Shown in pieces: positions 1-63,113 of a stretch of DNA of 64,000 bases (position 1 is the stretch's first letter; each line of letters opens with the position of its first letter). Made by a program: the position numbers and the translations under genes. The stretch spans positions 2,816,001 to 2,880,000 of the forward strand of contig CM000152.2 of NCBI GenBank assembly GCA_000004695.1. Direction: 5' to 3'. Source of the DNA: Dictyostelium discoideum. Lineage: Eukaryota. A model generated the notes under the pieces. That model searched no databases, was not told the DNA's origin, and was given only the letters and a program-made list of their open reading frames with translations.

Positions 1-1
1 T

Positions 2-58
2 AATAATAATAATAATAATGATAATAATAAATTTGAAACATTGGATTCTAGTGATTAA
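2..58 (+). CDS. Possible 3' end of a gene that starts upstream of the window (Asn-rich C-terminus NNNNNNDNNKFETLDSSD, stop TAA 56-58)
   Basis: Open frame from the window edge ending in TAA. Its (AAT)n codons are typical of dictyostelid poly-Asn tails. No start is visible, so this is weak. Confidence 0.2.
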   Translation, partial: NNNNNNDNNKFETLDSSD

Positions 59-139
59 ATTTAGTTTTATAATAATAAAAAATAAATAAAAAAAAAAATG
101 AATAAAAAATAAATTAAATAAAATAAATAAAATAAAAAA

Positions 140-615
140 TTTATTTCTTGTATTAATTGATCGTTATCCCTCAGATTATCTTGAGTACCAAATTTATTTT
201 CGACCAAATCTTAATTTTTACAATGGACAAAATGGATTTTTTTGGGGGTTATTTTTATTTTATTTTTTTTTCGAAAAAAATTGTGGAAAAAAAAAAGTGA
301 GTTGTACCAATTATGAAAATAAAAATCTAATAAGTGGTTCTGGATATTTGGAATTTAGTTTTTTAGTAATAAAAAATAAATAAAAAAAAATAAAAATCAA
401 TATAAATTTATTTCTTGTATTAATTGACCGTTATCCCTCAGATTTTCTTGAGTACCAAATATATTTTCGTCCAAATCTTAATTTTTGTAATGGACAAAAT
501 GGATATTTTGTGGTGGTTGTTTTTTTTTTTTTTTTAATTAAAAAATTATGGAAAAAAAAAAGTGAGTTGTACCAATTCCGAATAAAAATATCTGATCAGT
601 GGTTCAGAAAAAATA
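140..615. repeat. Tandem duplication of a ~270-bp unit (copy 1 ~140-400, copy 2 ~410-615, roughly 90% identical)
   Basis: Direct reading: 'tttatttcttgtattaattga(t/c)cgttatccctcagatt(a/t)tcttgagtaccaaat...ttgtaccaatt' occurs twice, head to tail. Each copy holds a segment less AT-rich than its surroundings. Confidence 0.75.
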
Positions 616-1182
616 AAAAAAAAATTTTATTTTAATTTTTTTATTTTATTTTATTTTTTTAATTTTTTTTTTTATTTTTTATTTTTTATTTTTTATTTTA
701 TTTTATTTTATTTTTATTTTTTTTATTTTATTTGAATAATTATTTATAATTATTTAATTTGTAGAACTTCCTTTTTTTATTTTTTTTATAATAATATAAA
801 AAAAGGGAAAAAAAGAAAAATTATTTTATTATTAAATATCTTAGATATTAAAATTTTATTTTTTATTTTTATACAATTTTGAGAATTATTAATAATAAAA
901 TTTTTATTTTTTTATTATATTCAAGTAATTGAAAAATATCTTTTTATTAAGATTGATTGGTGATCATTATTGTTCAACGCATTCAAAAAAAAAAAAAATA
1001 TTTTGTGTAAAGATATTTTTTTATCTTTTCATTTACCATTGGTTTTTTAATCAGATTTTTATTTCCCAATTTTTTATTTTTTTTTAATTTTTTATTTTGG
1101 TGCAAGTTTTGGCAATTGTTTTTTTTTACTCCAAATTCAAACAGTACTTTTTTTAAAAAAATGATTTTTATTTTTATTTTAA

Positions 1183-1214
<32 letters not shown>

Positions 1215-1296
1215 ATAAATAAATAAATAAAATAAATAAATAAAAAAAAAAAAAAAATATAATTTATTTATTTAAAAATAAATAATAAATTCATAA

Positions 1297-2056
1297 ATGA
1301 AGTTTTTTAAATTGAATTTTTTATTTTATATTTTTTTTATTTTATTATTGGTTGTTAATAATATTCCACAAGTTAATTGTATAGTAAAGAATTTTATTTC
1401 TGTAAATGGTCAATGGGGCACAACATCAAATTGGGCTGATGGAATAATTCCAACAAATGCTGATACTGTTTATATTAGTAATTCAAATAACCAAACTTGT
1501 TTTAGTTCCAATGTTAAAATTGTATCCAATCGTACCATTGTCGGTGATGGTAGTTTAAAAGGAATAGTTTTACAAATTGATAATTATGGTTTCCAATTTC
1601 AAAGATTAAGTATCCAACAAGGTGGAAGAGTATTTTTAGGAATTAAAGGTGACCCAACAACACTTGGTTCTTCATATGATTCTGATGTTGAGATTATTTT
1701 TATTTATGGTGAATTGGATATTAAAGGAACTTTCAAAAAATCATCAAGTGCAAAATATAAAAATACTACAATTCAACTATATCAAGGTTCAGAATTCATT
1801 ATTGATAATAGCCAATTTGAAAGTTATTTAATTAATTCAATTCAAACTTCAACAATATCATTCCAAACTGGAACAAAAGCAACAATGTATGGTCTTATTG
1901 CTGATGCTGGAACTTTTGTTGGTGTTGGTAATAGTAGTATCATCATTAAAGATAATCCAGTTGGTAGAAGTACATTCTTTAATAGTTCAGCTCAACTTTC
2001 TGTTAGAAATTCATCATTTGAATGTCATGATATTTCAAATATAGCTGTAAATATTC

Positions 2057-2115
<59 letters not shown>

Positions 2116-2169
2116 TATTATTATTATTATTTATTATTATTATATTTATTATTATTTTACTTAAGTAAA

Positions 2170-2242
<73 letters not shown>

Positions 2243-4496
2243 AAAAAAAAGGGAGATTCTGAATTTTTCTTTTCTAAAAAATCAAATGTATCATTTATAG
2301 ATGATTCAAATGATTCATTTAATGAAATTGGATTATATGTTGATAGTTCATCAATTTTTATTCAAGATCATACAAATTTTTATTGTGAAAAATTTATTGG
2401 TAATTTTGATAGTTATATTCAATTTGAGAATGGTTCAGTTGGTTTTATTAACAATGATTACTATTTAAATGGTGAATCAATTTTAGTAGTAAAACAATCA
2501 ACACTTACTCTAAACCATACATTAAAAGCAAGTGATGATTCTTGGGTTTATGTTTTACAAGGATCAGTTGTTAATATTAAGAATAATGTTTTAATTAGCA
2601 AAAATGGTTTGATTAGTGGATATCAATCTAAATTTGAAATCACTGGAAAGGAATCAACTGAAAAATTATATTTCCTATTAGAAGATCAAGGTCAATTATA
2701 TTTCTATGATCAATCAACTGTAATTTTAGAATCAAATTTACAAGCAGCAGGAAATTCAGTTGTTGCTTTCAATCATACATATACTAATTTCAATTCAAAT
2801 ATAACCTTTTTTGATACATCATCATTAATTGGTAGAAATTTTAGTACTATTGCATTAGATAATAATTTAGTTATGGTAGATAACTCAAGTATGTATTTGG
2901 AAAATTCTGATCTTACAATTAGTGGTTCAATTGTTTTCAATGATAATGCATTCCTTACAATGAGACAATCATCATGTAAAGTTAATGGATTTTTCTCTGA
3001 TTATACTTCACCAATTAAAAAATATTATCTTGCAATTATAAATTCACAATTTAATATTGATGGTTTTTTCTTTAGTGTAAGTTTTATTTTTATTTTAATT
3101 ATTTATAAAAAAAAAAATAATAATAATTAATTAAATTTTTATTTTTTTATTTTTATTTTTATTTTTAAAGTCTGGTAATATTTTAATTTCAAGTTCAACA
3201 TTAGAATGTAATAATGAATTTAAAATTGTTGGAGGTTTAAGAACTGATAATGGATCACATATTATTGTTTCAAATGGTAATTTTTCAATTGATGGTCGTA
3301 TTAGAATTAATGATACTACAATTGAATTAAAGAATGGTATTTTAGAATTTAGTGAATCATCAAATTCAATTCTTTTTAATTCAACAATTATTTTAGATAG
3401 AGGTGATATGAAAATTAAAGTTGGATCAACATTAGAACTTTTAAATACTAAATTGATAAATAAAAATGCCAATATGAATATCAATGGTAATATTTATATT
3501 AATACCAATAGTAGTATGACAAATGGTGCCAACTTTAAATTAAATTCAAATATTCTTCCATTGAATAATTCTGGTACTGAAGAGTTTGATAATCAAGGTT
3601 ACTTTGATATTGTAAAGGGTGCAAATGAATCAATTATTATGGTTCCAGTTAGAAATAGTGGTACAATTAATGTTGGTAGAGAAACTACAATTATTTCATT
3701 CACTTCAACCAATGGTACTATAATTGTTAATCCAAATGCAACTCTTCATTCAAATAACACTTTTATAATTTCAAATAGTAGTGTACAAGGTAGTGGTGTA
3801 ATTAATTCATCAATTTCATCAAATGGTGGATCAAGTTATGGTAACGATACAATCACAAACTTGGATATTAATGGTAATTTAGAATCAAATGAAGATGAAT
3901 TTATATTTACATTGGATGGTAAAAACTCTACAACTATTAATATTGGTAATAATGCAACCATTACAAATGCTACTTTAATCATTAGAGTTAGTAATGATAT
4001 TGTAAATTCAACCCAAAATACAACATTGGTAACAAGTTCAAATTTGGATGCAACCTTTTCAAAAATTGTTTTTCAATCATATGATCCAGAAACTGGAATT
4101 CAAAAACAATTGGATGATTGTGCTCATAAAATTAAAAATGATAAAGGTACTCTTGGATTATTATTAAATTCAAATGCTAAACAATGTGTAATAGTTTCCA
4201 CTACAAGTAGTGGTACAGGTGGTGGCACAGGTGGTGGTACAGGTGGTAGTACAGGTGGTGGTACAAGTGGTAGTACAGGTGGAGGTACAGGTGGTACAGG
4301 TGGAGGTACAGGCCAAACTGTTGTGGTTGTTGAAGAAGATCAAAAGAGCTCATTAAGTGCTGGTGCAATTGCTGGTATTATTGTAGGTATCGTTTGTGTT
4401 GCTGGTATTGTTGGTGTAATTATTCATTTCAGAAATAAATTACCATCTGCTCAAAGATTAACTTTCAAATTAAAGAATCTTAGTGATAAACCTTAA
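1297..4496 (+). CDS. Three-exon gene (~1297-2046, ~2252-3076, ~3171-4496) for a ~960-aa secreted/type I membrane glycoprotein with right-handed beta-helix-like repeats
   Basis: The start encodes a signal peptide (MKFFKLNFLFYIFFILLLVVNN). Exon 1 ends at a GTAAAT donor. Intron 1 carries (ATT)n followed by about T70. Exon 2 begins after AG at 2250-51 and ends at a GTAAGT donor at 3077. Exon 3 begins after AG at 3169-70 and is in frame with ORF 3408-4496. The protein has many N-x-S/T sites and repetitive beta-strand-like segments, then a (GTGGG)n-type Gly/Thr tract at ~4200-4320, then a TM helix (IAGIIVGIVCVAGIVGVIIHF) and a short tail. Confidence 0.6.
2053..2240. repeat. Intronic microsatellite: (ATT)~30 followed by a ~70-nt T homopolymer
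   Basis: Direct reading of intron 1 of the gene at 1297-4496. Confidence 0.9.
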
Positions 4497-4884
4497 AAAT
4501 TTTAAGATTCTAATTATTTATTTAAAAAAAAAAAAAAAAAAAAAAAAAATTAAATTAAATAAAAAACTAATTGTAATTATATCACCATAATTATTTTTCA
4601 CTCCCATAATTTGTAATATTTAATTTTTACTATTTTAATATTAGTAAAAGATTAAAATTTTTTACAATACTAAAAAAAACAAATCGGGTTAAAATTTTAT
4701 TTTTAGAATAAAAAAAAAAAAAAAAAAAAAAATTAATATTAAAACTAAAATTAAAAAAAAAAAAAATAATTAGAGCTTACTATGAAAACTAAAAAAAACT
4801 ATAAATGATGTAACTATGGATTTAAAATTATTAAATCTTTTTTTTTTTTAAAAAAAAAAATGATTAACTAAATTTTAAACATAT

Positions 4885-4922
<38 letters not shown>

Positions 4923-4923
<1 letters not shown>

Positions 4924-5597
4924 TGGAAGTTTTAAATAATTGGTTATCAAATAAATGTTCATTAAAAGATATAAATAAATACTTTTTTGGTATTAGAGAT
5001 AAAAACAATAATTTAAATTATAAATTAATGGAAAGAGAATATGAATATTTAAGTTTTAAATATAATGGTATAATTCCAAAAGAAATTTTAGAAAAATGTA
5101 GTGATAGAATTGGTATACCAATGGATTATTTATTAAATAGAGGATTATGTGAAACTGCATTTTTTCATTTAAAATTAAAAAATGATAAAAAAATGGCAAA
5201 AAGGTATTTTAGAGTAGCAATAAAATTCAATTCAGCCGAAGCATCATTTGGTATGTCTTTATTGTATTGTGAAGAAAATAATATCGAAAAAGCAATAAAG
5301 TATGGTGAAAAATCAGCACTTGAACCACCAATGATTAAATTAATAAATCAAGATAAACTTTATCCAAACTATAGAGTTCATGAAGCTCAATATCAAACTG
5401 GTCATTTATATGCAAAATTCAAAAAAGATTTTACAAAATGTTTTTGTTTTTATTTATTATCAGCAGAAAGTGGTAATATTAGAGGAAATTATTTAATTAG
5501 TTGTATGTATAAAAAAGGTGTTGGTTGTGAAAAAAATGAAGAATTTAGTAAAAAATATTTATTAAAAGCAACTTCTTTAGTTAAATGTAAATGTTAA
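4923..5597 (+). CDS. 224-aa Sel1-like (TPR-family) repeat protein, single exon
   Basis: Intact ORF. It contains repeated units such as AEASFGMSLLYCEENNIEKAIKY, GHLYAKFKKDFTKCFCFYLLSAESG and GNYLISCMYKKGVGCEKNEEFSKKYLLKA. These match the Sel1 pattern (G..Y..G.G...D...A..W..KAA). Confidence 0.5.
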
Positions 5598-5633
5598 AAA
5601 TAAAATAAAATAAAATTAAAAACCTTTTTTTTT

Positions 5634-7688
<2,055 letters not shown>

Positions 7689-7692
7689 TTGG

Positions 7693-7726
<34 letters not shown>

Positions 7727-8516
7727 AAATTAAATAAAAATAAATAAAAACAAAGTTTTTTTTTAAAAAAAAAAAAAAAGCTTTTTGCGGATATTATTTT
7801 TCTTTTATTTTTTAACAAATATTATTTTTTTTTTTATTTTTTATGAAATTTCATAAATATAAAAATGTCAAATGTATTATTCTTTTCATATTTTCTAAAA
7901 ATAAATAATTTATACTTTAATTTTAATACTAAAAATTAATAATAAATAATTATTTTAAAAAAAAAAAAAAAAAAATAAAAACAAAAAAAGAAAGAAGAAG
8001 AAAAAGAAAAAGAAAGATTTAGTGAAGAATACATTGAAAACGCAAAAACTCAAATTAATAAATTATTTTTTGATAGAATTGGTGGATTAATTGGATTCTC
8101 TGATCAAGATAACAATCAAGATATAAATCATAAAAATACATTAAATTTAAACTATCAAGAACGTGAAGAAGAAGATGATGATGAAGAAGAAACAACTCAA
8201 ACTGTAAATGTATATTCAACTATTGGTATTAATAATAATAATAACATCAATAAAACCTTTAAAATAAATGATAACGAAACCATTATAATTAATAATAATA
8301 ATAATGATAATGATAATAATAATAAAGAGAAAGAAGATAATGATGAAAAAGAATATCAAAGAATTAAATCTGAATATATTAAAATTTCAAAAAGATATTT
8401 TGAATTAAAAGAAAAAAGAATAATTAAAAAAAGGAATAAAGAATAAAAAAAATAAAAAAACTATTATTATTATTTGTTAAAGTATTATTTTATTTTTTAT
8501 TTTATTTTATTTTATT

Positions 8517-10676
8517 TTAATTATAAACTGCTTTTTGATAAACTAAATTATCAATGATTGAAGTAAAATATTCTTCAGTTTTTAAAGGTTTTGGATCAGA
8601 AGTATTATTTAAATAAATTTCTTTATGATTTCTAATCATTGTATTAATTAATTCAAAAGTTGAATCTTCAACAGGATATTTACCAGCAAAAGTTGCTAAA
8701 TATTTCATTTCCAATATGAAATGTTGTAAACCACCATAACCGAAAACCAAATTTGAAGTAGATTCGAATCTATTTGAAATGATATTAACGATTTCAGAGA
8801 TGATTCTAGAGGCAATTGGTAAAACACTTTCAACATTGACATTGGTTTGAATTGATTCAGCCAATCTATCCAAAGCTTCTGATAAAACAATAAAATTCTT
8901 TGGAAATGGGTCCAACTCTTCCTCGACTTGATATTCTTGTTCTTCCCAATTCATACTATTATCCACCAATTCCAATGCTTTTCTAGTTGAATATTGGTCT
9001 CTAATTGACTCGAAATAACTATACAACAATGACGATAACTGAGTTAGGTTATTTAATTTCTCACCTGTTGCATCTTCGAATCTAGTTGCAATTCTTGATA
9101 CTAAATCATCGACAATATAAACTGAATCACTAATGATCGCCAAACATTGAGTATCTGATAAATATTCTTTTTGAATTTCATTTTTTAAATAACTCATATA
9201 ATCTTTGAAAATACTACCAAGTGATTGAGAAATCACTGGTATCAAATCAATTGTAATAATTTGACAAATATCAATTGCAAACTTTTGAATTATTGTATTT
9301 AAAAATATAGTACTTGATGTTAATTTTAATCTACCTTGATCAATATCTTCCATATTATTTAAATTATCTTGATGCATTTGTTGAAATGTTAATCCAATTT
9401 TTTTATTACCACCACCACTATTAAAATTATTATTAATTATTGGTGATTGATAATTATTATTATTATTACTATTATTATTACTAATACCACTACCACCACT
9501 ATTTGGAGTACCACTATTTTTTAATGATGATGGTAATGAATTTAATTGTGATTTTACTTCATAATCCCAATTTGAAACACCATTCCATTTTTCATCCATT
9601 AATTGATGTAACATACTATCTCTAATCTTTATTTCATAATTTACAATTAATTGTTCAACATGTGGTTGTAATAATAAATTCCAATAAAATCCAATTGATA
9701 AACCAGTTTGATCCATCTATATTTATTAAAATAAAATAAAATAAAATAAAGGTTAATAAATTATTTATTTATATATATATATGTAAATTGTTGTTCTTTT
9801 TTTTTTTTTTTGTTTTTTTAATATTACCATTTCACAATGTGATTCAATAATTCTAATTGCTTGAGAAATTGAATAAAAATTATCTAAAATAAAAACTTGT
9901 CTATTAAAAATATCAGAAATTAATACTAATTCTTCAATGATCCAAGAAACTAAACCAGAATTCATATAAGAAGGAAATGAATTTGTGAAATCATTACAAG
10001 TTGAATTGATTGAATTAAAGATAACTCTAGCCAATTCACCAATGAATCTATTTAAATCACCACTAAAAACAATCTTTTTAATAGCTTGATTAATTGAATG
10101 ACTTCTACTCTCTAAAAATATTGATTTCGCTTTATCATTTTGTGATAATCTAACTAGTAACGAAATTGTATCTTTAATTTGATTAGCTTTTAATAATGGG
10201 CTTCTTAATTCATTCATTAATTTATCTGTTAATATTTTAACTTTATTCTCAATTTGATCTTTTAATGGATGTGTTTGCATTACAATTTCAACTTTTGGAT
10301 TTGATTCATAAATTTTATTAACTTTTTTTAAAAAAAATAAAAATAAAAAATAAAAAAAAAGTATTAATAAATTAAATTTATAATTTATTATTATTATTAT
10401 TATAATAATAGAATATTATAATTATACTTTTTTCAACTAAACCAACAGCAACTTCAAATTCTCTTTGTTCAATTGAAACTGATAATTCATTTGGAGCAGT
10501 AGTTAACCATTGAATTGGTTCAGTTGCAGGTGATAATGGTTCGAAATCAATTTTACCACTTTTTTTAACTTTATAATGATCCCAACTAATTGATATATTT
10601 TGTAATGATGACATAACATTACCATAATCTGATATTAAATTTCTAAAATCTAACATATCAACTTCAGAATCTAAAA

Positions 10677-10711
<35 letters not shown>

Positions 10712-11436
10712 AAAAATAAATAAACAAATAAATAAATAAATAAATAAATAAATAAAAAATAAATATTAATAAATTTAAAGAGAGAGAAGAAAAAAAAAAA
10801 GTTTTTTTAAAACTTACTTGCAATTTCTTTTGAAGCACCAATAAATATTAAATGATTTTTATATACATCCTTTTTTAAATGATCAATACATCCTAATTTT
10901 CGATTTTCTAAATATTGTAAATGAACAGTTGCTTGTTGATCAGTTTTATGTGTAAATAAATCATTAACATCTATATATATATATATATATATATACAATT
11001 ATTATTTTGATATTAGTATATGATGAATGAATGAATGAATGAATTAATAAATGAATGAATGAATGAATGAATGATTACATTTTTCAGAATTAAAATTTGA
11101 AGATAAAAAAGTTTCATATTGTACTGGATTATCTTCTTTTTTATTTTGTTCAGTTTCTTTTTTATTTGGAAATTCACCCCAACGATAAACAGTTTTCTTT
11201 TTATCGGTATGTGTGCATGTTACAGTTTGTTCTTTTAGATCGATTGAAATTTTAATTGAAGTTTTTTGTGTCGTCATTAAATTTAATGGTCCTACCCATT
11301 CTCTATACATAAATTTTACAATATAATGTCCATTAGATTTGATATCAACACATTCTATATCATTATAATTTACTGATGATGATACTGTTGATAAATTTGT
11401 ATCGATTTTTAATGGATATGTTACACCTTTTTTCAT
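8517..11436 (-). CDS. Five-exon gene (~11436-11079, ~10970-10818, ~10670-10429, ~10321-9828, 9716-8517) for a ~830-aa protein resembling exocyst subunit Exo84 (PH-like N-terminal part plus helical-bundle C-terminal part)
   Basis: The exons join in frame through GTAATC, GTAAGT, GTATAA and GTAATA donors and AG acceptors. The introns hold (ATGA)n, (TA)n and (AAATAAAT)n repeats. Exon 1 has a PH-domain-like sequence. Motifs '[13 protein letters not shown]' and '[30 protein letters not shown]' resemble the region after the PH domain in Exo84. The C-terminal 399-aa exon is alpha-helical. The family assignment comes from remembered motifs, not from a search. Confidence 0.45.
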
Positions 11437-11620
11437 TTTTATATTAAAAATAAACTATACCGCTATATATCTCTCTCTCCTTTATCTATCTATCTATCTA
11501 TATTATTCTTATTCTTATTTACACCTGTCTACAATTTAATTTTTTGAAAAAAAAAAAAAAAAAAAAAAAAAACAATAAATTAAAATTTTATGCTGGTGGA
11601 AAAAAAAAAAAAAATTATGG

Positions 11621-11678
<58 letters not shown>

Positions 11679-11798
11679 CTTTTCTAATCAAAAACTTTAT
11701 TAATAATTTAGAATTTAATTATTTATCATTCATTTTTTATAATTGTTTTTTTTATAAATTTAATTTTTATTTGATTTAATTTTTTTTTTTTTTTTTTT

Positions 11799-11879
11799 TT
11801 ATATATTATAATTTAAAGTTTGTTCAGTTTGATAAACTTGTACTTGATTATTATTATTATTATAATTATTATTATTATA

Positions 11880-11920
<41 letters not shown>

Positions 11921-12197
11921 TACTATTATTACTATTATTATTATTATTACTATTATTATAGTTATTATTAAAATTATTTTCAATAATAGAATTATTATTA
12001 TTGTATGCCATATTATTTAATATTGTAAAATATGGTGCAATTGCATTTGGTGAAGTTGGTACTAAAATCCATTGATGTGTATTATTAGTGAAATTTGTTA
12101 AAATTGGTGATCCTTTTGGTGCTTTTGGATATATAATTAAAATCTATTATTTTTTTTAAAAATAAATAATAAAAAATAGAAATAATAAAAAATAATT

Positions 12198-54184: not shown

Positions 54185-54350
54185 ATTGGTTAGAGAGTGT
54201 TGTTACCTCTTTGGTTCCAACAAAAATGAATTGATCAAAAGATAATGCTTAACCACAAGCTTTGACGATTCTTGAACGAGCAGTTTCAGTGAATCTTAAT
54301 GATTAAACAAACAGTGAGTAGTCTAATCTATATTTTTTATTTTCAATTAA
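54185..54350 (-). pseudogene. Genomic fragment of rpl18 covering the last ~30 bp of intron 3 plus most of exon 4; ~85% identical to 22150-22330
   Basis: The reverse complement reads 'gattaattgaaaataaaaaatatag attagactactcactgtttgtttaatcattaagattcactgaaactgctcgttcaagaatcgtcaaagcttgtggttaagcattatcttttgatcaattc...ggtaacaacact'. The rpl18 gene reads 'gattaattgaaaataaacaaaatatag attattagactgcccaaaactcactgtttgtgcattaagattcactgaaactgctcgttcaagaatcgtcaaagctggtggtaaagcattatctttcgatcaattc...ggtaacaacact'. Intron sequence is included, so this is a DNA-level copy rather than a processed one. Confidence 0.7.
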
Positions 54351-54384
54351 TCCTTAATTAATTTCTGTTTTTTTGTAAAGGATG

Positions 54385-54760
54385 TGGGTTTACCATTAAT
54401 TTCTATATTTGAAATAAGTTATTATTTCATCAATTGATATTAAAATACTTCCTGGTACGAAACCTTTCTGATTATTGCTAATAGTTTTTGGGTGAATGGG
54501 TATTAATCTATTATTGATTGCTAATGATTGAATTTTATATTTACAGTTTGCCAGAGTGACCAGTCTCCAGTTTTTTTTTAGTTCTAGATAACCTTCTTTG
54601 GAATTGAGACAACCAGTCTTTTTTTATATTCATTTTTGATGAGACACGGATTCTTTAATGTGCTTCCAAATTGAATCAATTCAAAAGACTTTTTTTGAGT
54701 TTGAGGATGAGCATTTAATCAATGTAGAAAGTGTAATGAATTGTTTAATATTAAAAAGTT
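54385..54760 (-). mobile_element. Diverged fragment of a TRE3-like element (reverse-transcriptase region) lying beyond the poly(A) end of the full-length copy
   Basis: 54455-54560 (tcctggtacgaaacctttctgattattgctaatag...ttttatatttacagtttgccagagtgaccagtctcc) aligns at ~75% with 56893-57020 inside ORF2 of the full-length element (gcctggtacgaaacctttttgattgtggttgatcac...ttttatatatacagttagccagtgtaattggtcttc). The fragment has no intact ORF. Confidence 0.5.
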
Positions 54761-54788
54761 TTTAACAGCATTCATATAATATTATTTA

Positions 54789-54819
<31 letters not shown>

Positions 54820-54917
54820 TGGATTAACAAGATTGATATATGTCCATCTGTGTTAATACGAGTTTTTATTTAATATTTATTTATAGGCTTATCATTTAAG
54901 CTGAAGGGTTATTTTAA

Positions 54918-57900
54918 TCATATGAATTGATCAAAAGATATAATATTTGGGAGAGATGATTCTGGAATACAATAGTAATTAGCTGTTGTTTTTCTTAGCT
55001 TGATCGTTGAGGTGAGAAGGATCTTAGGATCTTTGAAATTATTATGGTCTTTTGCTGATAAGTTTTTCAGATCTTTTGCTTTTTTGATGTATTCTAGAGT
55101 GGCCAATTTGTGCCATTTCTTTAGAAGGGAGCTGTATGATAATGATTCATTTGTTAAAGGATCTTCACTGTATATTTGATTGCAAATCCAAATCCAAATG
55201 TTGTGGAGGATAAGGGCCATTAGGTTTCTATATGCGAATGATCTGGTTAGATCATAGTCTATTGCTTTATAGTTCCATTCAAAGTATTCTTTGTGGAATC
55301 TGTGGTTGGCGTAATCTGCATTCACTTCTTGATCTTTTTTGGCTGTCGGTGATAATTTTGGAGTTATTCTATTAATGAAATTGTTATTTTGCCTAATTCT
55401 TGTATGATGCCAGTTTTTACCTTTGCCTGTGGTAATATAGATGAAATTTTTGAGTTTATTTATTTTTATGAATTGTTTTGTTTTCTTGCATGAGAAGAAC
55501 AGGTGACCGTATGGGTCTTTGCTCATATCTTCTTTGCAGAGTGGGCATTGTTTGTTGTGAAGGTAGTTTATTGGAAGGCATCTGGCATGGAATCTAAACA
55601 TTGTGTCTCTTGTTTTAGGGTCTTTTATCTTCAGTATGTTGTTGAAGAGTTGATTATAGCTGTAGCCTCTTAAGTTTAGAGATGATTGGATTTCCGTTTT
55701 AGGGATGGTTGGATTTTGGTCTTGAATTGTGGTATACCATTCTGCCAGTGAAAGTGGTTGTCCATTTTCGTTTTTTATGGATGTGAGATTATTGTTGAAG
55801 ATTGCTTTTTTGATTCTTATTTTGTTCCATTCGTCTAAGTTTTCTTTTAGGTATCTGGATGTGAATTTGTTTTTTTGGATTTGATATTCCCAGCTTTTGT
55901 GATGAGATGAGTTTGTTTGTTTGGTTTCTAGTGCTAGGATGAATTGGTTTATGATCCAAAGTTTCTGCGCCAGTTGTCTCAATTCTATATTCCAAATGTT
56001 CCAGCCCCCTACTTTTAGTGGGTATCTTGCTCTTTTGGTTCTCATTAAATTAATAACTTGAAATCCACTAGCATTTTTGTTGTTTGGTGCCGATAAAAAC
56101 CATTCGACTAATTTATTGATTTGGTTTAATTCCTCTTCCTTAAAGTTCTCTACATATGAATAGTAGGTTAATTTAGAGAGTGCGAATGCTTTGAGGATGT
56201 TGGTTTTGGTTTTGATTGTTGAGTCAGTGGTTTTCCATAGTACTAAGGATGATCTTATTGTGTTTAATATTTCTGGCATTTTTCTTGTTATCCCTTTGCC
56301 TGTGAAGAAGTATCCCAAGTATCTTTCTGGATTTGTAGATATTGGAATTCTTTGGTTGGTATTGTCTGGGTTGCCTATAAGAATTGATGAAGATTTGTCG
56401 ATGTTTAGTTTTGAGGAAGTGGCTTTGCAAAATGAATTGAAGTGTTGTAGTACTAATTCAAGTTGTTGAAAGTCTGGGACCATTGAAGCCGAGTCGTCTG
56501 CAAAGCTTTGGAATTTCTCTCTGTGGTTGCTGTTGTTTAGAGGAAGGCCAGTAATTCGGTCATCTTGTAAAATTTTTCTAGCTAAAGCCTCTATTACAAG
56601 GACGAACAGGGTGGGTGATAGTGGATCTCCTTGTTTAACTCCTCTTTTGATCTCAAAGGGTATAGTAGTTCTTCCATTAATTTCAATTCTTGCTTCAGAT
56701 TTGGTGAGTAGATTCATTATCAGGTTGATTATATTGGTTGGAATGTTGATGTGTTGTAGTGATCTAAGTATTGAACCGTGTGAGATCGAGTCAAAAGCTT
56801 TTTCGAAATCATATAGTGTAATTATTCCGTTAATTCTTTTATCATTACAATAGTTGATTAATTCGTTCATTGATATGATATTATCTAGAATGAATCTGCC
56901 TGGTACGAAACCTTTTTGATTGTGGTTGATCACTTTCGTTAGTATTGGGATTATTCTATTGTTTATTAGTTTTGAGTGGATTTTATATATACAGTTAGCC
57001 AGTGTAATTGGTCTTCTGTTTTTGATTAGTTCGGGGTCTCCCTTTTTAGGTATCGTGATAATGAGGCCTTCTTTGTAATTTTTGCTAATTAGATGAGGAT
57101 TTCTTAGAGTGTCGTTGAATGCTGAGGCCAGTATTGGAGCTAGTTTTTCTTTGTGTGTTATGTAGAATAAGTTTGGAATTCCATCTGGGCCTGGAGATTT
57201 GTGTGGGTTCAATTGTTTTATTACTTCTAGGATCTCTTGTGATGTGAATTCATTTTCAAGGTTGTCCCATGTTGAGTCCCTGGTCACTGTCCAATTTTCC
57301 AACATTTCATAATGAGATGGTGGGTCATCTTCTTTGTAGTCATAAAGATTTGAGTAATATTTTACGTATTCTTCTTCGATCAATTCCTGTTTGTTGATTG
57401 TTCTACCTTGTGCATCTTTTACTGCGTTGATGGTGAAATCATTGTGTCTTTTCTTGATTCTCGCGGAGATGTACTTGAGTGAGGTTTCTTCGCAATAGTT
57501 GTTCAATTCTTGTTTAAGTTGTTCTTCTCTTTTTTTAGATTCATTTATTGCTGAAAGGGTTGCGAAGGCTTGGTCTTTAAATTCTGTCTCTAGTAGGGAG
57601 ATTAGATTTTTGATGTTTGCCTTATTGTTGTAGTCATTTTGTTTTTGAAATTCTGTGTATAGTTGTTTTATTTTGTTTAGTAAGCTGTTGAGTTGAGAGA
57701 AGGAAATAGAGTTATGGTTGGATGACAGCTCCCTTGAATAATCGTTAAGTAGGAAGTCTATTTTCTTAAGCATTATGCTTGAGAGGATTGAGGATTTTTT
57801 TAATCTCCATCTGCGCTTGTTCATCTGTATGTTGGGTAGAGTGAAGGTGGTTGATAGGAAGTTGTGATCTGATAGAGGTATGTCATTAATTTTTGGGGGG

Positions 57901-58517
57901 ATTAGGTTCCTTAAGTATAATTGGCTGTAGTTGATTATGCTATTGTTAAGGTATATTCTGTCTAGTCTCCTTTCCAAGATTCTTGTGAGGTTATTGTTTG
58001 TGTTGTGTATCGTTCTTGAGAAGGTGGGTCTTTTATTTAGTTGGTCCATATCCATTAGGTTATTTGAAATTCTGATGGCTTCGATTACTGTGGCCATCTC
58101 ATCTGGGGATTGTGTTGTCAAGTTGCCTTGGTCATCATTTGATGTGTGATTGTCATTGAAGTCTAAACAGTTGAAGTCGCCTGCTATGATGTCGATGTTT
58201 TTATTAGGGTTAGACGTTAGGTTGTGGTATTGGTTGTTGAAGTGTTTGTTTAGTGTTGAAGCTAGTGTTTTTCTTTTATCAGGTTGGGCCGGGGCGTATA
58301 TGGCCAAGATTCTCGTTGTGGTATCTTTTATTAGAATGTCTGATATTATTAGTCTACCTTCTATTATGAATATTGGTGAGAGTTTTATGTTTTGGTTGTT
58401 GTGGTTTAGTATTCCTATTCCGTTGCCTCTGTTGGTTGCGCTAATGATGGAGCCAGGAAATAGCTGGTGTGCTTGTGTTGCGTCGGCGTTGAGTTCATTG
58501 ACTATGGTTAGTGCCAA
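54918..58517 (-). CDS. Retrotransposon ORF2: AP-endonuclease + reverse transcriptase + C-terminal Cys-rich (CPLCKEDMSKDPYGHLFFSC) domain
   Basis: Intact 1199-aa ORF with the motifs listed for the element. Confidence 0.8.
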   Translation of the reverse strand: MALTIVNELNADATQAHQLFPGSIISATNRGNGIGILNHNNQNIKLSPIFIIEGRLIISDILIKDTTTRILAIYAPAQPDKRKTLASTLNKHFNNQYHNLTSNPNKNIDIIAGDFNCLDFNDNHTSNDDQGNLTTQSPDEMATVIEAIRISNNLMDMDQLNKRPTFSRTIHNTNNNLTRILERRLDRIYLNNSIINYSQLYLRNLIPPKINDIPLSDHNFLSTTFTLPNIQMNKRRWRLKKSSILSSIMLKKIDFLLNDYSRELSSNHNSISFSQLNSLLNKIKQLYTEFQKQNDYNNKANIKNLISLLETEFKDQAFATLSAINESKKREEQLKQELNNYCEETSLKYISARIKKRHNDFTINAVKDAQGRTINKQELIEEEYVKYYSNLYDYKEDDPPSHYEMLENWTVTRDSTWDNLENEFTSQEILEVIKQLNPHKSPGPDGIPNLFYITHKEKLAPILASAFNDTLRNPHLISKNYKEGLIITIPKKGDPELIKNRRPITLANCIYKIHSKLINNRIIPILTKVINHNQKGFVPGRFILDNIISMNELINYCNDKRINGIITLYDFEKAFDSISHGSILRSLQHINIPTNIINLIMNLLTKSEARIEINGRTTIPFEIKRGVKQGDPLSPTLFVLVIEALARKILQDDRITGLPLNNSNHREKFQSFADDSASMVPDFQQLELVLQHFNSFCKATSSKLNIDKSSSILIGNPDNTNQRIPISTNPERYLGYFFTGKGITRKMPEILNTIRSSLVLWKTTDSTIKTKTNILKAFALSKLTYYSYVENFKEEELNQINKLVEWFLSAPNNKNASGFQVINLMRTKRARYPLKVGGWNIWNIELRQLAQKLWIINQFILALETKQTNSSHHKSWEYQIQKNKFTSRYLKENLDEWNKIRIKKAIFNNNLTSIKNENGQPLSLAEWYTTIQDQNPTIPKTEIQSSLNLRGYSYNQLFNNILKIKDPKTRDTMFRFHARCLPINYLHNKQCPLCKEDMSKDPYGHLFFSCKKTKQFIKINKLKNFIYITTGKGKNWHHTRIRQNNNFINRITPKLSPTAKKDQEVNADYANHRFHKEYFEWNYKAIDYDLTRSFAYRNLMALILHNIWIWICNQIYSEDPLTNESLSYSSLLKKWHKLATLEYIKKAKDLKNLSAKDHNNFKDPKILLTSTIKLRKTTANYYCIPESSLPNIISFDQFI

Positions 58518-58621
58518 TGAGTTTGGGGGGGATTGGGATTTGATAAAGTCTGTTTTGTTTTTGAAGGAGGTGTCAGTGCCCCAACCTCTGACATTCCATT
58601 GGTTGATTTTGATTACTACTA

Positions 58622-59872
58622 TTATGAGATGATATCGATCTCCTCTTGGGAGTCGTATAGCTGCGGTTTGGATGGTGAAGGGTAGATACTCTCTATGAAG
58701 CTCTCAATGATTCCTTTCCTTTCTTTTTTGACAGGTGTCTTAGGGGTGGATGGGATGTAAGGGTTGCTTCTGTTTATTGTTGGTGAGAGTTGGGTGACTT
58801 CATTGTTTGAGTGGATTTCCTCGTTCTTGCGTTTATGTGATGGAGGGATGTTTAGTGTCTTCTCTCTGTTTTCCGAGGATGAATGGATGTTAGTGCTTGT
58901 TTTGTTGGCATTGTCTTTTTGGATGGCGTTGGATGTTGTGGTAGTGGTTGTGGTGGGTTTGACAGATTGAGATTCTGCTGGGTTTTTGGGGGGAAGAGGT
59001 TGAGATGACTTTTTTGCTTGGGCTTTTTTCTCTTGTGTTGATTGTTTATCAGACTGATTGTTTGCTGAGTTGTTTGTTTGTTGTTGTGGTTTTGGTTGAG
59101 AGGATTTGATTGCTATCCTGTTTTGAGTGTTAGGAGGATCTGTCATCTCATCTTCTAATGGTTCCTCCGTGTTGTTTGTCTCTACTTTCTTGTTTTTCTT
59201 TTGTGAGGAGTAGGTTTTGGTGGCCGTTCTGATGGTAAAGTTTGCGATTTCTGTAATGTGTTGGCCAGATTTCATTTGATCGCCTATTTTGCATTCTATT
59301 AGACCGAATACTATGAGGTGGTCGGTGGAGTATATAGTATTGTATATTGCATAGGGTATTTCTTCTGCAAAGGCAGTTTTGATGAGGGCGTCCACTATTC
59401 CTGCCTTTTCTCTGGGAATTCTTACTCTTCCTGTGAGGACGTGGAAGTCTCTACTGGAGGTGATGAAGGTTCCCAATTTGCTTCTATCTCTAATGATATT
59501 TAGGAGAGATTGTTCGTTTTTAATCATCAGGTGGATCATTTTTCTAGTTCCTTTGCCTATGTATATCTTGTCGATTGGGATATCGTAGTTTGAGAGTGTT
59601 TTTCTCATTTCTTCTAACCCCTTGAGATCCATTTTGGGGAATTCGAGTGTAATTGGGTAGAATCCGTTGTTCTTCTCGTAGGTTGAGAGCGCAGTCATGT
59701 TCAATATGGTCTCGCAGTATTTGGAGATGTCTTTGAGGCCTATTGATAGTTTGGGGTAAGTTTCCTTTGTCTCTGCTGTTTTTGTGGAGAATTCCTTAAT
59801 GAAGTTCTCCGATGCCTCGTCCATATGGGTGGAGGGGTTGGCCATTTTAGCCGCGTCTGCGTAGGAATTCAT
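58622..59872 (-). CDS. Retrotransposon ORF1 (416 aa, basic/Ser-Thr-Gln-rich C-terminal half)
   Basis: Intact ORF just upstream of ORF2 in the same element, with GC-normal composition. Confidence 0.6.
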   Translation of the reverse strand: MNSYADAAKMANPSTHMDEASENFIKEFSTKTAETKETYPKLSIGLKDISKYCETILNMTALSTYEKNNGFYPITLEFPKMDLKGLEEMRKTLSNYDIPIDKIYIGKGTRKMIHLMIKNEQSLLNIIRDRSKLGTFITSSRDFHVLTGRVRIPREKAGIVDALIKTAFAEEIPYAIYNTIYSTDHLIVFGLIECKIGDQMKSGQHITEIANFTIRTATKTYSSQKKNKKVETNNTEEPLEDEMTDPPNTQNRIAIKSSQPKPQQQTNNSANNQSDKQSTQEKKAQAKKSSQPLPPKNPAESQSVKPTTTTTTTSNAIQKDNANKTSTNIHSSSENREKTLNIPPSHKRKNEEIHSNNEVTQLSPTINRSNPYIPSTPKTPVKKERKGIIESFIESIYPSPSKPQLYDSQEEIDIIS

Positions 59873-60082
59873 CTCGATGGGATTCCTTTGAATCGGCGAT
59901 TTGGTAAGTTAGATCTGTAGATCGTGGTGGATTGGTGATTTTTTTCGAAAGATTGGTTAAAATTGACCGAGATTAAGGATAGAAAAGGATGAATTACTTT
60001 TCACGTGTATCTTGTATCCTCTTGATAGCCAATATAATATTAATTGTGAGTTCCTTTATTTACTGACAATTCATTAAAGGAA

Positions 60083-60094
60083 TCGAACCCTTTG
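60083..60094 (-). promoter_or_regulatory. External B box (ex-B box) downstream of the tRNA gene: GGTTCGATTCC on the tRNA strand
   Basis: The minus strand reads agGGTTCGATTCCttt, a perfect B-box consensus, ~30 bp after the tRNA 3' end. Dictyostelid tRNA genes characteristically carry such an extra B box. The surrounding sequence does not fold into a second tRNA, as no acceptor-stem partner is present. Confidence 0.5.
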
Positions 60095-60113
60095 TCTAAG
60101 TTGGGAAGACCCC

Positions 60114-60119
60114 AAAAAA
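60114..60119 (-). terminator. Pol III oligo(T) terminator (TTTTTT on the tRNA strand) 5 nt after the tRNA 3' end
   Basis: Plus strand reads cccAAAAAAtata immediately after the tRNA. Confidence 0.5.
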
Positions 60120-60123
60120 TATA

Positions 60124-60197
60124 CGAGACCATCAGGGGTCGAACCTGAGACCTACCGGTTCGTAGCCGGTCGTTATATCCAACTAAACTATAGTCCC
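60124..60197 (-). tRNA. tRNA-Arg (anticodon ACG), 74 nt, no intron
   Basis: Minus strand: GGGACTA TA GTTT AGTTGGATA TAAC G ACCGG CTACGAA CCGGT AGGTC TCAGG TTCGACC CCTGA TGGTCTC G. The acceptor stem pairs GGGACUA/UGGUCUC with two G-U wobbles. The D loop has GG. The anticodon stem is 5 bp with loop CU-ACG-AA. The T arm is TCAGG-TTCGACC-CCTGA. The discriminator is G. Confidence 0.75.
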
Positions 60198-60224
60198 TTT
60201 GATATTTTTCAAAGAAAAATAGAT

Positions 60225-62034
60225 AAAATATATATTACTATTCACCTTAAACTCAACAATAGAAATAATAAAACGAGAGATTAACACAAAAGAGGATATG
60301 GAACCAATCATAACATTTTATGATTTTGAAAAAGCATTCGATTCAATCTCACATAACGCCATTCTACGTACTCTTGCACATCTAAAACTACCACTCAAAA
60401 TGGTCCTCACAATAATGAACTTACTCAATGAATCAGAAACATCAGTGTACATCAATAACTCATTATCTAAAAGCTTTACATCAAAAAGAGGAACCAAACA
60501 AGGTGATCCTATCTCTCCCACTATCTTCGCATTAGTGGTTGAATGCATGGCAACTACTATAATAAATGACCGCTGCATCAATGGTGTAACCAAAGAAACC
60601 ATTAAAATACTACAGTTCGCCGATGATACAGCAACAATAGCATACAACTTTATGGACCATTTCCTCATGAATGAATGGATCAAGAAGTTTTGCCAAGCAA
60701 CCAGCGCAAAAATAAACCAAACCAAATGCTCGTGTATCACTTTCAAATGGAACACCAGAACGCTATACACCGTCATAAAATCAAACGAAAGGTACCTCGG
60801 CTTTGACTTCAACAATAAGGGTATCAAATCCAAAATCAATACAATCTCAGACAACATCAGAGCTAAACTAGTAACATGGAACTCAACTTCATCAACCTAT
60901 ATGGGCAGACTCATAATGGCAAAAACATATGCACTATCTCAGTTAACGTTCCACACTTACATCAACACCACACCACAACACAATAGTATTGAAAATAACA
61001 TCGTAAAATTCGTTTTCAACACAAAATCTAAAAACTCTCTTTCACTACAAAGAAGACAAAACAACTATATCAATGGTGGCCTAAACTTATGGAACCTGAA
61101 GACAAGAGAACTAGCACAGAAAGCATGGTTATTCGAAAGATACCTCCACCAAAGAGTAAGTAACACTCCTAGTTCATATATAAAACTGTGGGAAGAGGAA
61201 CTCAAAAACAACAACAACAACAAAACAACAACAAAACAAAATCAACTACAACTACACTGGCAATGCAAGCAAGCATGGACCCAATTAAAAACTCCACAAA
61301 ATAAACAAACACACTACGAACACCTCCCAAAATTAAAAAAAATATACGAGGATATGATGACAACTCAATCTCCTGAACACAACAAATTCATACCAACTCC
61401 TGGCCAAAAAGAAATAATGACCAAAATTAATAGCAAACACCTTCCATTTAAAGAAATCAAAAAAATAATAAACATGAAAGGTAGAGATCTATTATGGAGA
61501 TACACACTGAAAGCACTACCAAAAATATACAACATGCCATGCCAACAGTGTGGGGAAGATGAGACCTCAGAACATATATTCTTCAACTGCAAAGCCCACA
61601 TCAAAAACACACAAGAAATCTTCAACTACACCCTAACTAAGTGTGGACACACCACTCACACCTGGAATGTGAAGATTTTAAACCATCTACAAATTGCACT
61701 AGTAGCCAATTTAATAGCTATTATATTCGATAAAATCTGGCACAAAAGAAATAAACTCATTCACGATGAAAAAGAAATAATAATTCACAGACAACAAGTC
61801 ATACGTGAACTAATTAAAACACAAAGAGCTGCATGGGACAGGACACAAGCGGTTATAAACAAAACATTAAGAATCAAATCAAAGCAACGGCCAGAAGAAC
61901 AAAATAAATTAGACTCACTAATCTCGCTAAAGCTATTACAATTTAGCAGACAATGGAACTCACCTCTTCACGCAATAGAACTTCCTAAACATCTCAAAAA
62001 ATACAATAATTCACTCAGTACTTTCTATAAATAA

Positions 62035-62092
<58 letters not shown>
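60225..62092 (+). mobile_element. 5'-truncated non-LTR retrotransposon copy, TRE5-like by position (~40 bp upstream of the tRNA 5' end, oriented divergently), ending in a 58-nt poly(A)
   Basis: The ORF opens inside the RT domain. The region from ~60235 to 60298 is in frame with no stop, and the RT motifs are 'ITFYDFEKAFDSISH', 'GTKQGDPISPTIF' and 'FADDTATIA'. It has a CCHC-like finger (CQQCGEDETSEHIFFNC). The stop at 62034 is followed directly by A58 (62035-62092). Its RT is related to but distinct from the minus-strand element (~45-50% identity), so it belongs to a different family. Confidence 0.65.
60298..62034 (+). CDS. Truncated retrotransposon ORF2 (C-terminal part of the RT plus zinc finger), 578 aa from the first Met
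   Basis: See the element call. Minus-strand ORF 60318-60857 is its antisense artefact. Confidence 0.7.
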   Translation: MEPIITFYDFEKAFDSISHNAILRTLAHLKLPLKMVLTIMNLLNESETSVYINNSLSKSFTSKRGTKQGDPISPTIFALVVECMATTIINDRCINGVTKETIKILQFADDTATIAYNFMDHFLMNEWIKKFCQATSAKINQTKCSCITFKWNTRTLYTVIKSNERYLGFDFNNKGIKSKINTISDNIRAKLVTWNSTSSTYMGRLIMAKTYALSQLTFHTYINTTPQHNSIENNIVKFVFNTKSKNSLSLQRRQNNYINGGLNLWNLKTRELAQKAWLFERYLHQRVSNTPSSYIKLWEEELKNNNNNKTTTKQNQLQLHWQCKQAWTQLKTPQNKQTHYEHLPKLKKIYEDMMTTQSPEHNKFIPTPGQKEIMTKINSKHLPFKEIKKIINMKGRDLLWRYTLKALPKIYNMPCQQCGEDETSEHIFFNCKAHIKNTQEIFNYTLTKCGHTTHTWNVKILNHLQIALVANLIAIIFDKIWHKRNKLIHDEKEIIIHRQQVIRELIKTQRAAWDRTQAVINKTLRIKSKQRPEEQNKLDSLISLKLLQFSRQWNSPLHAIELPKHLKKYNNSLSTFYK

Positions 62093-62097
<5 letters not shown>

Positions 62098-62470
62098 GGA
62101 ACCCAAGTTAATCAGAAAATTTCCAGATTTTTAACTTTTTAAAGAAAAATATAAAAAATAGAAAGAAAATAAAATGAAAATCACAAACAACACCACAAAT
62201 ATTAAGCAACACAAATGCCTACAAAAAATAAGCGAAATTGTGGATAAAACTCAATTAAAAAAAAAACAATTCAAATACGTCATAAACATCAATCACGAAC
62301 CAGACGATAAAATAAAAAAAGATTTAGAAAAAAGTTTGGACAAAAAAGATGTTTTAATCAAAAGTAATAATACAATTCAAAATTCGAAACAAAAAAAAAA
62401 AAAAAAAAAAAAGTAAACTAACCCCTCTTTTAGAGACCCTGTAAAAAAAAAAAAAAAAATAAAATAAAAT
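62093..62470 (+). other. A/C-rich segment with three internal oligo(A) runs, resembling stacked 3' tails or fragments of retroelements. ORF 62174-62416 inside it is Lys-rich and ends in A23
   Basis: The sequence 'cctgggaacccaagttaatcag...' begins straight after the A58 tail. Oligo(A) runs lie at 62035-62092, 62390-62412 and 62445-62462, separated by short unique sequence (gtaaactaacccctcttttagagaccctgt). The composition is retroelement-like rather than genomic-AT-rich. Confidence 0.3.
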
Positions 62471-63113
62471 GAGATCTAGCATCTCAAGGAGAAGCAAATA
62501 ATAATTGCGTTATCCAATTCAAAAAAAAAAATATATATTACTATTTTCCAATTCAAAAAAAAATATTCTTAAAATATAAATAATACAAAAAATAATCCAT
62601 GATCAAAATTAATTAAACCGGGTTGATATTATAATTATTAAATAAAATCTATTCACCCTTAACAAACAAACTTTCCAAAATTATATTTAATATTTTTAAT
62701 TAAAAAAAACATTTATTCAAATTTAACCACCTTTGATCTATTTTGTGGGTATTTTGAACTTATTATTGTAAGAAAAAGATAATATCAAATTTTTACATAA
62801 TTCCTATTTATTTATAAATTTCTTAATTAAATTTTAAGTGAATTACTATTTATTTTTAAGTACGATAATTATATTTGAAAATTTATCTACATATTAAAAA
62901 AAATTATAACTCTCTCAATTATAAGTTTTTTTTGTGTATTTTAACAATATAATTTTAAGTCAACATATAATTATTTAAGTTTTTTTTTAATTTAAAATAA
63001 TTCTATTTTTTTTTAAATATATAAATTACTTAATTTTTTTAAAAAAAGTATAAATTCTATTTTTTTTTTTTTAATTTATTATTATTGTTTATTAAAGTAT
63101 TATACATTTTAAA

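Follow-up and report, generated by a model that had tools for sequence, protein, structure and literature searches.

A tRNA-Arg(ACG) gene between two retrotransposons

The DNA analysed here (hereafter the window) is a 64-kb stretch of Dictyostelium discoideum contig CM000152.2, in which ARAGORN finds a sole tRNA gene, a minus-strand tRNA-Arg(ACG). This gene is bordered on both sides by retrotransposons that do not carry long terminal repeats (non-LTR elements): a 5′-truncated TRE5-A copy upstream, and an essentially full-length TRE3-type copy, most likely TRE3-A, downstream. The proteins of these elements are 99-100% identical to D. discoideum assembly proteins. The gene and the signals for RNA polymerase III (Pol III) that accompany it are listed first.

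60124-60197, minus strand: tRNA-Arg(ACG) gene (ARAGORN; Rfam RF00005, 57.9 bits; B-box scan)
60145 to 60135, minus strand: internal B box of the tRNA gene, GGTTCGACCCC (B-box scan)
60114-60119, minus strand: Pol III terminator T6, 4 nt past the tRNA 3′ end (sequence)
60079-60089 (read from 60089 to 60079), minus strand: external B box (ex-B box), GGTTCGATTCC, 34 nt past the tRNA 3′ end

A first-pass annotation of this DNA had already proposed the tRNA gene at 60197-60124, a T6 terminator and an ex-B box about 30 bp downstream, and all three hold up. ARAGORN and Rfam agree on the gene, the tetranucleotide TATA lies between its 3′ end and the terminator, and the B-box pattern GGTTCGANNCC matches twice in 64 kb, where 0.02 matches would be expected by chance, once at the internal B box and once at the ex-B box. 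The tRNA gene looks functional.

For comparison we used eight D. discoideum loci (L001-L008), fetched via proteins of assembly GCA_054883475.1. Self-comparisons were carried out at the protein level or with dust filtering, as raw blastn was swamped by A/T runs.

A TRE3-type element downstream of the tRNA gene

The region downstream of the tRNA gene is occupied by a single element with the following parts.

54785-60031, minus strand: TRE3-type non-LTR retrotransposon, essentially full-length, most likely TRE3-A (homology to copies in L002 and L004)
59873-60031, minus strand: 5′ untranslated region (UTR)
58622-59872, minus strand: first open reading frame (ORF1), 416 aa, intact (ORF list)
54918-58703, minus strand: ORF2 frame, about 1261 codons, open throughout (frame geometry)
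54816-54917, minus strand: 3′ UTR
54790-54815, minus strand: poly(A), seen as T26 on the plus strand
60032-60042: target-site duplication (TSD) ATATAATATTA in plus-strand reading, tRNA-proximal copy (exact match with 54774-54784)
54774-54784: TSD ATATAATATTA, distal copy, just past the tail (exact match)

The element has the same orientation as the tRNA gene, and its length is 5216 nt with the tail excluded. Its 5′ end (60029-60031) lies 92 nt from the tRNA 3′ end, 47 nt beyond the ex-B box and 103 nt beyond the internal B box. The earlier description of a full-length, co-oriented downstream element therefore stands, with an ORF1 of 416 aa and a reverse transcriptase (RT) match to RVT_1 at 5e-33, while the distance of about 80 bp given there becomes 92 nt. 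Likewise, the poly(A) tract had been placed at 54781-54812, and the T-run is measured at 54790-54815; in plus-strand reading the whole tail consists of ATAAA and this T26 run. The 11-bp TSD is exact and adjoins termini that were defined by homology.

Both reading frames are uninterrupted. A Pfam search with the 416-aa ORF1 product gave no match, and a gene call in L002 likewise yields an ORF1 of 416 aa. The ORF2 frame is shifted by -1 with respect to that of ORF1, whose end it overlaps by about 79 nt. In Pfam, the ORF2 product gives the RVT_1 match, preceded on its N-terminal side by a weak but full-length Exo_endo_phos match (0.0058, aa 36-280) and followed by a faint zf-RVT match. The domain order thus runs from an apurinic/apyrimidinic endonuclease (APE) through the RT to a zinc finger, with a weak APE match and a faint zf-RVT match. 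Judged from its two open frames, this copy could be an active one.

Other copies of the same family are very similar. From 60029 to 54781 the window element is 99.3% identical to the L002 copy over 5249 bp; identity to the L004 copy is 99.0%, and the values for the L004 and L005 copies together span 99.0-99.4%. The full-length starts in L002 (2052-2068) and L004 (2554-2570) consist of an A-run, CCGTACC and then GC[T/G]ATCAAGAGG. At 60029-60031 the window element has TG in place of CCGTACC, which amounts to about 7 nt lost or 2 untemplated nt.

We consider that this element is probably TRE3-A, an assignment made from length and abundance. Published consensus lengths are 5229 bp for TRE3-A, 5279 bp for TRE3-B and 4734 bp for TRE3-C. 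With 5216 nt outside the tail and about 7 nt missing from the 5′ end, the window copy is nearest to the TRE3-A consensus, although the margin relative to TRE3-B is just 50 bp. TRE3-A is also the most abundant TRE3 family (67 published copies, 13 of them intact), and the ORF2 of the window element falls in the largest ORF2 cluster found, with 79 members across strains. Membership in another TRE3 subfamily, for example TRE3-B, is unlikely, and would leave the TRE3 reading as a whole unchanged. It gains some weight from the small difference between the two consensus lengths, from the considerable number of TRE3-B copies (43, 9 intact), and from the basis of the label, which is length and abundance. 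Nevertheless, the length of the window copy, with its short tail and its 5′ loss, is closer to 5229 than to 5279 bp, and the size of the ORF2 cluster suits the more abundant family. Moreover, a second TRE3-type family (P0003 in L008), with 58% amino acid and 67% nucleotide identity, is a natural candidate for TRE3-B.

In its general organization the window element resembles TRE3-A (formerly Tdd-3) in having two ORFs, the second of them in the -1 frame, the APE-RT-zinc finger order, short UTRs, a poly(A) tail and a length of about 5.2 kb. The position beyond the ex-B box of a co-oriented tRNA gene is also shared, as are the open ORFs, which are a property of the 13 intact genomic copies reported. 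The 5′ end, with TG where two other copies carry CCGTACC, is the point of difference.

A truncated TRE5-A element upstream of the tRNA gene

On the other side of the tRNA gene, the features are as follows.

60225-60242: TSD AAAATATATATTACTATT, tRNA-proximal copy (exact 18/18 match with 62528-62545)
60243-62531, plus strand: 5′-truncated TRE5-A, about 2278 of 5647 consensus nt, followed by an A tail (homology to L005 and L001)
60243-62034, plus strand: C-terminal part of ORF2 (RT from about motif 3 on, and the zinc-finger region), stop codon at 62032-62034
62037-62093, plus strand: internal A-run of 57 A that separates the ORF2 stop from the B-module (internal also in L001, L003, L006 and L007)
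62094-62383, plus strand: 3′ B-module, 290 bp (97-98% identical to its 5′ counterpart in L003; module size from PMC3159450)
62384-62520, plus strand: C-module, 137 bp, ending in ...GCGTTATCCAATTC, with a terminal stem-loop (module sizes; fold)
62521-62531, plus strand: oligo(A) tail, 7-11 A (homology to L003, L004, L006 and L007 ends here)
62528-62545: TSD AAAATATATATTACTATT, distal copy (exact 18/18 match)

The element is divergent from the tRNA gene. A full-length TRE5-A in L005 is 100% identical to it from 60242 on, which fixes the 5′ junction at 60242/60243, 44-45 nt upstream of the tRNA 5′ end (60197). A divergent, 5′-truncated element had been anticipated here, at about 40 bp; the truncation is borne out by the plus-strand ORF 60298-62034, whose Pfam match to RVT_1 (2.4e-18) begins at profile position 69, and the distance is corrected to 44-45 nt. 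What remains of ORF2 encodes the C-terminal part of the RT and a region of Cys/His motifs, whereas the APE domain and the N-terminal part of the RT were lost by 5′ truncation. The ORF2 products of the upstream and downstream elements share only 33% identity and therefore come from different families, as had been proposed; they do not match the same family. An ATG-initiated ORF of 179 aa (60318-60857, minus strand) runs antisense to the ORF2 fragment and is probably spurious.

The 3′ part of the element is where our results depart most from the first-pass annotation, in which the ORF2 stop was followed directly by 58 A with no 3′ module. The run contains 57 A and is internal. Beyond it lie 427 bp of B- and C-modules that reach 62520 and are followed by an A tail, past the end coordinate of 62470 that had been assumed. 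Published module sizes of 290 and 137 bp fill 62094-62520 exactly. In comparison with the copy at a tRNA-Met locus (L001), identity is continuous at 98.8% from 60703 to 62531, straight across the A-run.

The modules carry further marks of TRE5-A. In this family, the TRE5-A.1 structure is AB-ORF1/ORF2-BC, the 290-bp B-module being a duplicate of part of the 5′ UTR that carries the ORF1 start (PMC3159450). In the window, the 3′ B-module likewise duplicates the start of ORF1, visible as an 80-aa ORF (62174-62416). L003 contains a stretch with 97% identity to 62043-62385, and an ORF1 of 444 aa (51.3 kDa) begins within that stretch; the first 67 aa of the protein are identical to the 80-aa ORF; the published size of the TRE5-A ORF1 protein is 51 kD (PMC5911963). 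A C-module of 134/137 bp terminates TRE5-A and TRE5-C but not TRE5-B, and its terminal stem-loop is essential (PMC3159450). For the last 54 nt of the C-module in the window, the predicted fold has a free energy of -11.3 kcal/mol (z = -3.1), and none of 200 shuffled sequences was as stable. Moreover, bases C38, A35, C26 and T15, counted from the 3′ end, match the published mutated bases and pair within two separate stems (PMC3159450). The C-module has also been reported as a driver of weak antisense transcription.

Judged by this 3′ architecture, the upstream element is TRE5-A, because both a 3′ B-module and a C-module are present and a 3′ B-module occurs in TRE5-A only, with none in TRE5-B or TRE5-C (PMC3159450). 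It is very unlikely that the element is instead a module-less, TRE5-B-like copy ending at 62093, with the remainder an unrelated flank or a separate insertion. The 57-58 A that directly follow the ORF2 stop do look like a poly(A) tail. However, ORF2, A-run, B-module and C-module follow one another without interruption, with 97-99% identity, in copies at four further loci (L001, L003, L006 and L007), and in L003 the A-run stands in front of the 5′ B-module as well. No TSD is found at 62094, whereas the perfect 18-bp TSD brackets 60243-62527/31, with the oligo(A) tail running into the A-rich start of the TSD. In L001 the equivalent copy, which ends in ...GCGTTATCCAATTC-A(n), lies between the two halves of a 12-bp TSD. 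An inspection for TSDs had been suggested near 60045 and 54780, where the TRE3 copies lie at 60032-60042 and 54774-54784, and near 60230 and 62093; the proximal TRE5-A copy is at 60225-60242 as anticipated, and the distal one is at 62528-62545 rather than near 62093. Overlooking the 3′ modules would have pointed to the wrong subfamily.

Among the window, L001 and L003, the length of the internal A-run varies from about 35 to 57 A. The presence of an A-run ahead of the 5′ B-module in L003 means that the duplicated TRE5-A unit seems to include the A-run.

Relative to TRE5-A.1 (formerly DRE), the window element has the same 3′ order of ORF2, B-module (290 bp), C-module (137 bp) and oligo(A), the same duplication of the start of the 51-kDa ORF1, the same C-module hairpin with C38, A35, C26 and T15, and the same placement upstream of a tRNA gene in opposite orientation, with 5′ truncation and a TSD. 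We see no difference of substance, other than that the window copy is a dead fragment of about 2.3 of 5.6 kb, with no A-module, 5′ B-module or ORF1, from which the APE and N-terminal RT parts of ORF2 are also missing. The non-autonomous derivative TRE5-A.2 has B- and C-modules in common with the window element, and the L003 copy that served for B-module comparison is of this type; its TRE5-A.2 signature is a large ORF2 deletion together with a BC deletion of about the published 72 bp, which leaves exactly 87 bp of C-module. In contrast, the window copy keeps the 3′ half of ORF2 and a complete BC region without the deletion of about 72 bp, which indicates derivation from TRE5-A.1-type RNA. TRE5-B and TRE5-C have related ORF2 proteins and the same preference for divergent integration about 50 bp upstream, but the window element differs from them in having both modules.

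The same families at other tRNA genes

Three other TRE5-A copies are all divergent from a tRNA gene, with upstream distances of 47 nt at tRNA-Met, 47 nt at tRNA-Lys(TTT) and 48 nt at an intron-containing tRNA gene; the intron-containing gene was detected by Rfam only. Among TRE3 copies, two others that are proximal to tRNA genes begin 88 nt downstream of tRNA-Asp (L004) and tRNA-Arg(ACG) (L005), both in the orientation of the gene. A single tRNA-Asp gene in L004 is likewise surrounded by TRE5 and TRE3 sequence.

The L005 locus (1-8883) contains a tRNA-Arg(ACG) gene at 4014-4087 with a full-length TRE5-A upstream, and three stacked, 5′-truncated TRE3 copies downstream (4176-4457, 4500-7785 and 7802-8883). 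It is a stronger and more extreme example of repeated targeting than the window. Chance proximity, or segmental duplication of a block of tRNA gene plus elements, is hardly credible as the source of the window arrangement: the L005 tRNA and 12 nt of 5′ flank are identical to those of the window, but identity ends 12 nt beyond the tRNA, the elements of L005 are different ones, each element of the window has a separate TSD, and tRNA-Met, tRNA-Lys, tRNA-Asp and intron-containing tRNA genes have elements at matching distances and in matching orientation.

Some further observations concern the comparison loci themselves. In L004, within the region 11249-12180 around a tRNA-Ala(AGC) gene (11818-11890), a TRE5-like 3′ fragment with only 91% identity ends 17 nt from the gene; either a deletion at the target site or membership in another TRE5 subfamily could account for this. 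A gene for a 1353-aa APE and RT protein begins 184 nt downstream of the same tRNA-Ala(AGC) gene and is probably another TRE3 subfamily. In L003, a segment of about 115 bp (TTGAGAATTTTGCGTAGCAAAATTTTC...GACTTAAAAAA) occurs twice within 5850-6210, about 65 bp apart, ahead of the TRE5-A.2-type 5′ B-module, and looks like a duplicated part of an A-module. ARAGORN finds no tRNA gene in the 17.6 kb of this locus.

Probable remnants of earlier insertions

Two shorter features of the window appear to be left over from older events.

54351-54670, minus strand: degraded RT remnant of a different TRE3-clade element, RT aa about 507-660 (tblastn, blastn)
62547-62563, plus strand: TCCAATTC-A9 scrap, oligo(A) preceded by the final 8 nt of a C-module, right after the distal TRE5-A TSD

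An older, diverged RT fragment behind the TRE3 copy was already recognized in the first-pass annotation, at 54385-54760, and its existence is confirmed, while its homology spans 54351-54670. The remnant contains a frameshift and an internal deletion of about 135 bp. In tblastn, its identity is 57-59% with ORF2s of two separate TRE3-type families, whereas matches to TRE5-type proteins are shorter and do not exceed 50%; it therefore represents a third lineage of the TRE3 clade, in decayed form. Identities in blastn are 65-71%. No closer relatives were found in the eight fetched loci, where only the TRE3 RT region (74% identical) matched. An exact 19-nt match to the C-terminal end of ORF2 at 54226-54244 may belong to the same remnant. 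The position of the remnant, distal to the intact TRE3, fits sequential targeting, the process that gives rise to TRE tandems (Table S2 legend, PMC5006619).

The TCCAATTC-A9 scrap is probably what is left of an earlier, ultra-truncated TRE5 insertion; the 5′ junctions of the earlier and the later copy would lie within 1-2 nt of each other. Its 15-mer occurs twice in the window, where 0.01 occurrences are expected, and the occurrences that we checked in the fetched loci lie at or beside TRE5 3′ ends or C-module homology.

A further trace is a 42-nt block, AAATAAAGGAAC..ATGAATGCTGT (AAATAAAGGAAC[TC]ACAATTAATATTATATGAATGCTGT), which is present in the window at 60032-60061 plus 54765-54784 (minus strand) and in L004 at 7810-7849, and which was not found in the other six fetched loci. 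Each time its start is 62-67 nt downstream of a tRNA gene, a different one in each case: tRNA-Arg in the window, tRNA-Asp in L004. The target site of the window TRE3 lies within it, and the TRE3 of L004 split it 20 nt further upstream. It is conceivable, though doubtful, that the locus records more targeting events than those listed, one of them with an uncatalogued terminus, the 42-nt block then forming a conserved end of an older, possibly undescribed element that targets positions downstream of tRNA genes. If such additional events did take place, the TCCAATTC-A9 scrap would attest to two TRE5 integrations with 5′ junctions 1-2 nt apart.

Three other origins of the block were rejected. It is not the 5′ end of the P0003 family, since it is absent from L008. 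It was likewise not found at the RT gene downstream of tRNA-Ala in L004, and is not the 5′ end of that gene. Finally, 3′ transduction does not account for it, as the left part of the block is present only in the 5′ flank of the window TRE3.

Discussion

The arrangement is almost certainly that of one tRNA-Arg(ACG) gene hit repeatedly by members of both known families of non-LTR elements that target tRNA genes (TREs), with TRE5-A upstream, TRE3 downstream, and scraps of older insertions behind them. That TRE5 and TRE3 elements share a single tRNA gene had been the central claim of the first-pass annotation, and it is upheld by distances, by orientation, and by independent copies at other tRNA genes. 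Mapping of the exact termini changed the spacings to 44-45 and 92 nt and left this reading in place.

These values agree with published integration preferences. TRE5-A is reported to integrate about 48 bp (40-54 bp) upstream of the tRNA coding region in opposite orientation, and TRE3 elements 40-150 bp downstream in the same orientation, relative to the internal B box or the ex-B box (PMC5911963); the range given for TRE3-A is 14-228 bp (Table 1 of PMC5006619). The 44-45 nt and 92 nt of the window fall inside 40-54 and 40-150 bp, respectively. An ORF2 with APE, RT and zinc finger, in a -1 frameshift arrangement, is also characteristic of TRE elements (PMC5006619, PMC5911963).

The most probable history of the locus is as follows. 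The TRE5-A copy integrated by target-primed reverse transcription on the 5′ side of the tRNA gene, and the TRE3 copy, most likely TRE3-A, on its 3′ side. The A tails, the TSDs and the 5′ truncation of TRE5-A are marks of target-primed reverse transcription. An earlier TRE3-clade element probably occupied the region now behind TRE3, and the 3′ end of an earlier TRE5, now a 17-nt scrap, the region beyond TRE5-A, such that newer copies would lie nearer to the tRNA gene. Targeting by TRE5-A needs an intact B box, and its ORF1 protein binds TFIIIB subunits (PMC5911963, PMC5006619). The TRE5-A copy of the window may have been placed through contacts between the ORF1 protein and TFIIIB, within a Pol III complex that depends on the B box, and the TRE3 copy may have been positioned at a defined spacing from either B box, internal or external.

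Several points weigh against parts of this account. The TRE5-A and TRE3-A labels are based on published structural descriptors, not on alignment to named references; for TRE5-A such a reference exists as GenBank X57034 (cited in the supplement of PMC5006619). The D. discoideum protein relatives of both elements are all annotated as 'hypothetical protein'. TRE3-A and TRE3-B are told apart only by the length gap of about 50 bp and by abundance. The absence of the first 7 or so nucleotides (CCGTACC) present in L002 and L004 means that the window TRE3 is not strictly full-length. The 11-bp TSD of TRE3 consists entirely of A and T, and random 11-mers, with ±3 nt of slack, match in about 1% of cases here; on its own, this duplication is supportive, not overwhelming. 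The targeting mechanism through contacts with TFIIIB and TFIIIC is taken from the literature, not from the window data.

Pol III complexes on tRNA genes also serve as safe landing sites for yeast Ty3 and for Dictyostelium DGLT-A and Skipper-2. Those are LTR elements that use an integrase, with DGLT-A inserting about 15 bp upstream and Skipper-2 8-23 bp downstream, whereas no LTR or integrase features are present at the window locus.

A tRNA locus with TRE5-A and TRE3 is known and well-described D. discoideum biology, and the one in the window is not special. At least one TRE is found at 61% of D. discoideum tRNA genes, and 13% have been hit by both TRE5 and TRE3 (PMC5006619). TRE tandems arise by sequential targeting (PMC5006619, Table S2). 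The significance of the locus is mainly one of correct annotation. For example, the internal A-run of TRE5-A can be mistaken for a poly(A) tail, in which case the element is cut by about 430 bp and the wrong subfamily is suggested. Beyond this, the locus is a clean textbook case of position-specific retrotransposition, with Pol III genes as the targets in a genome that is dense with genes.

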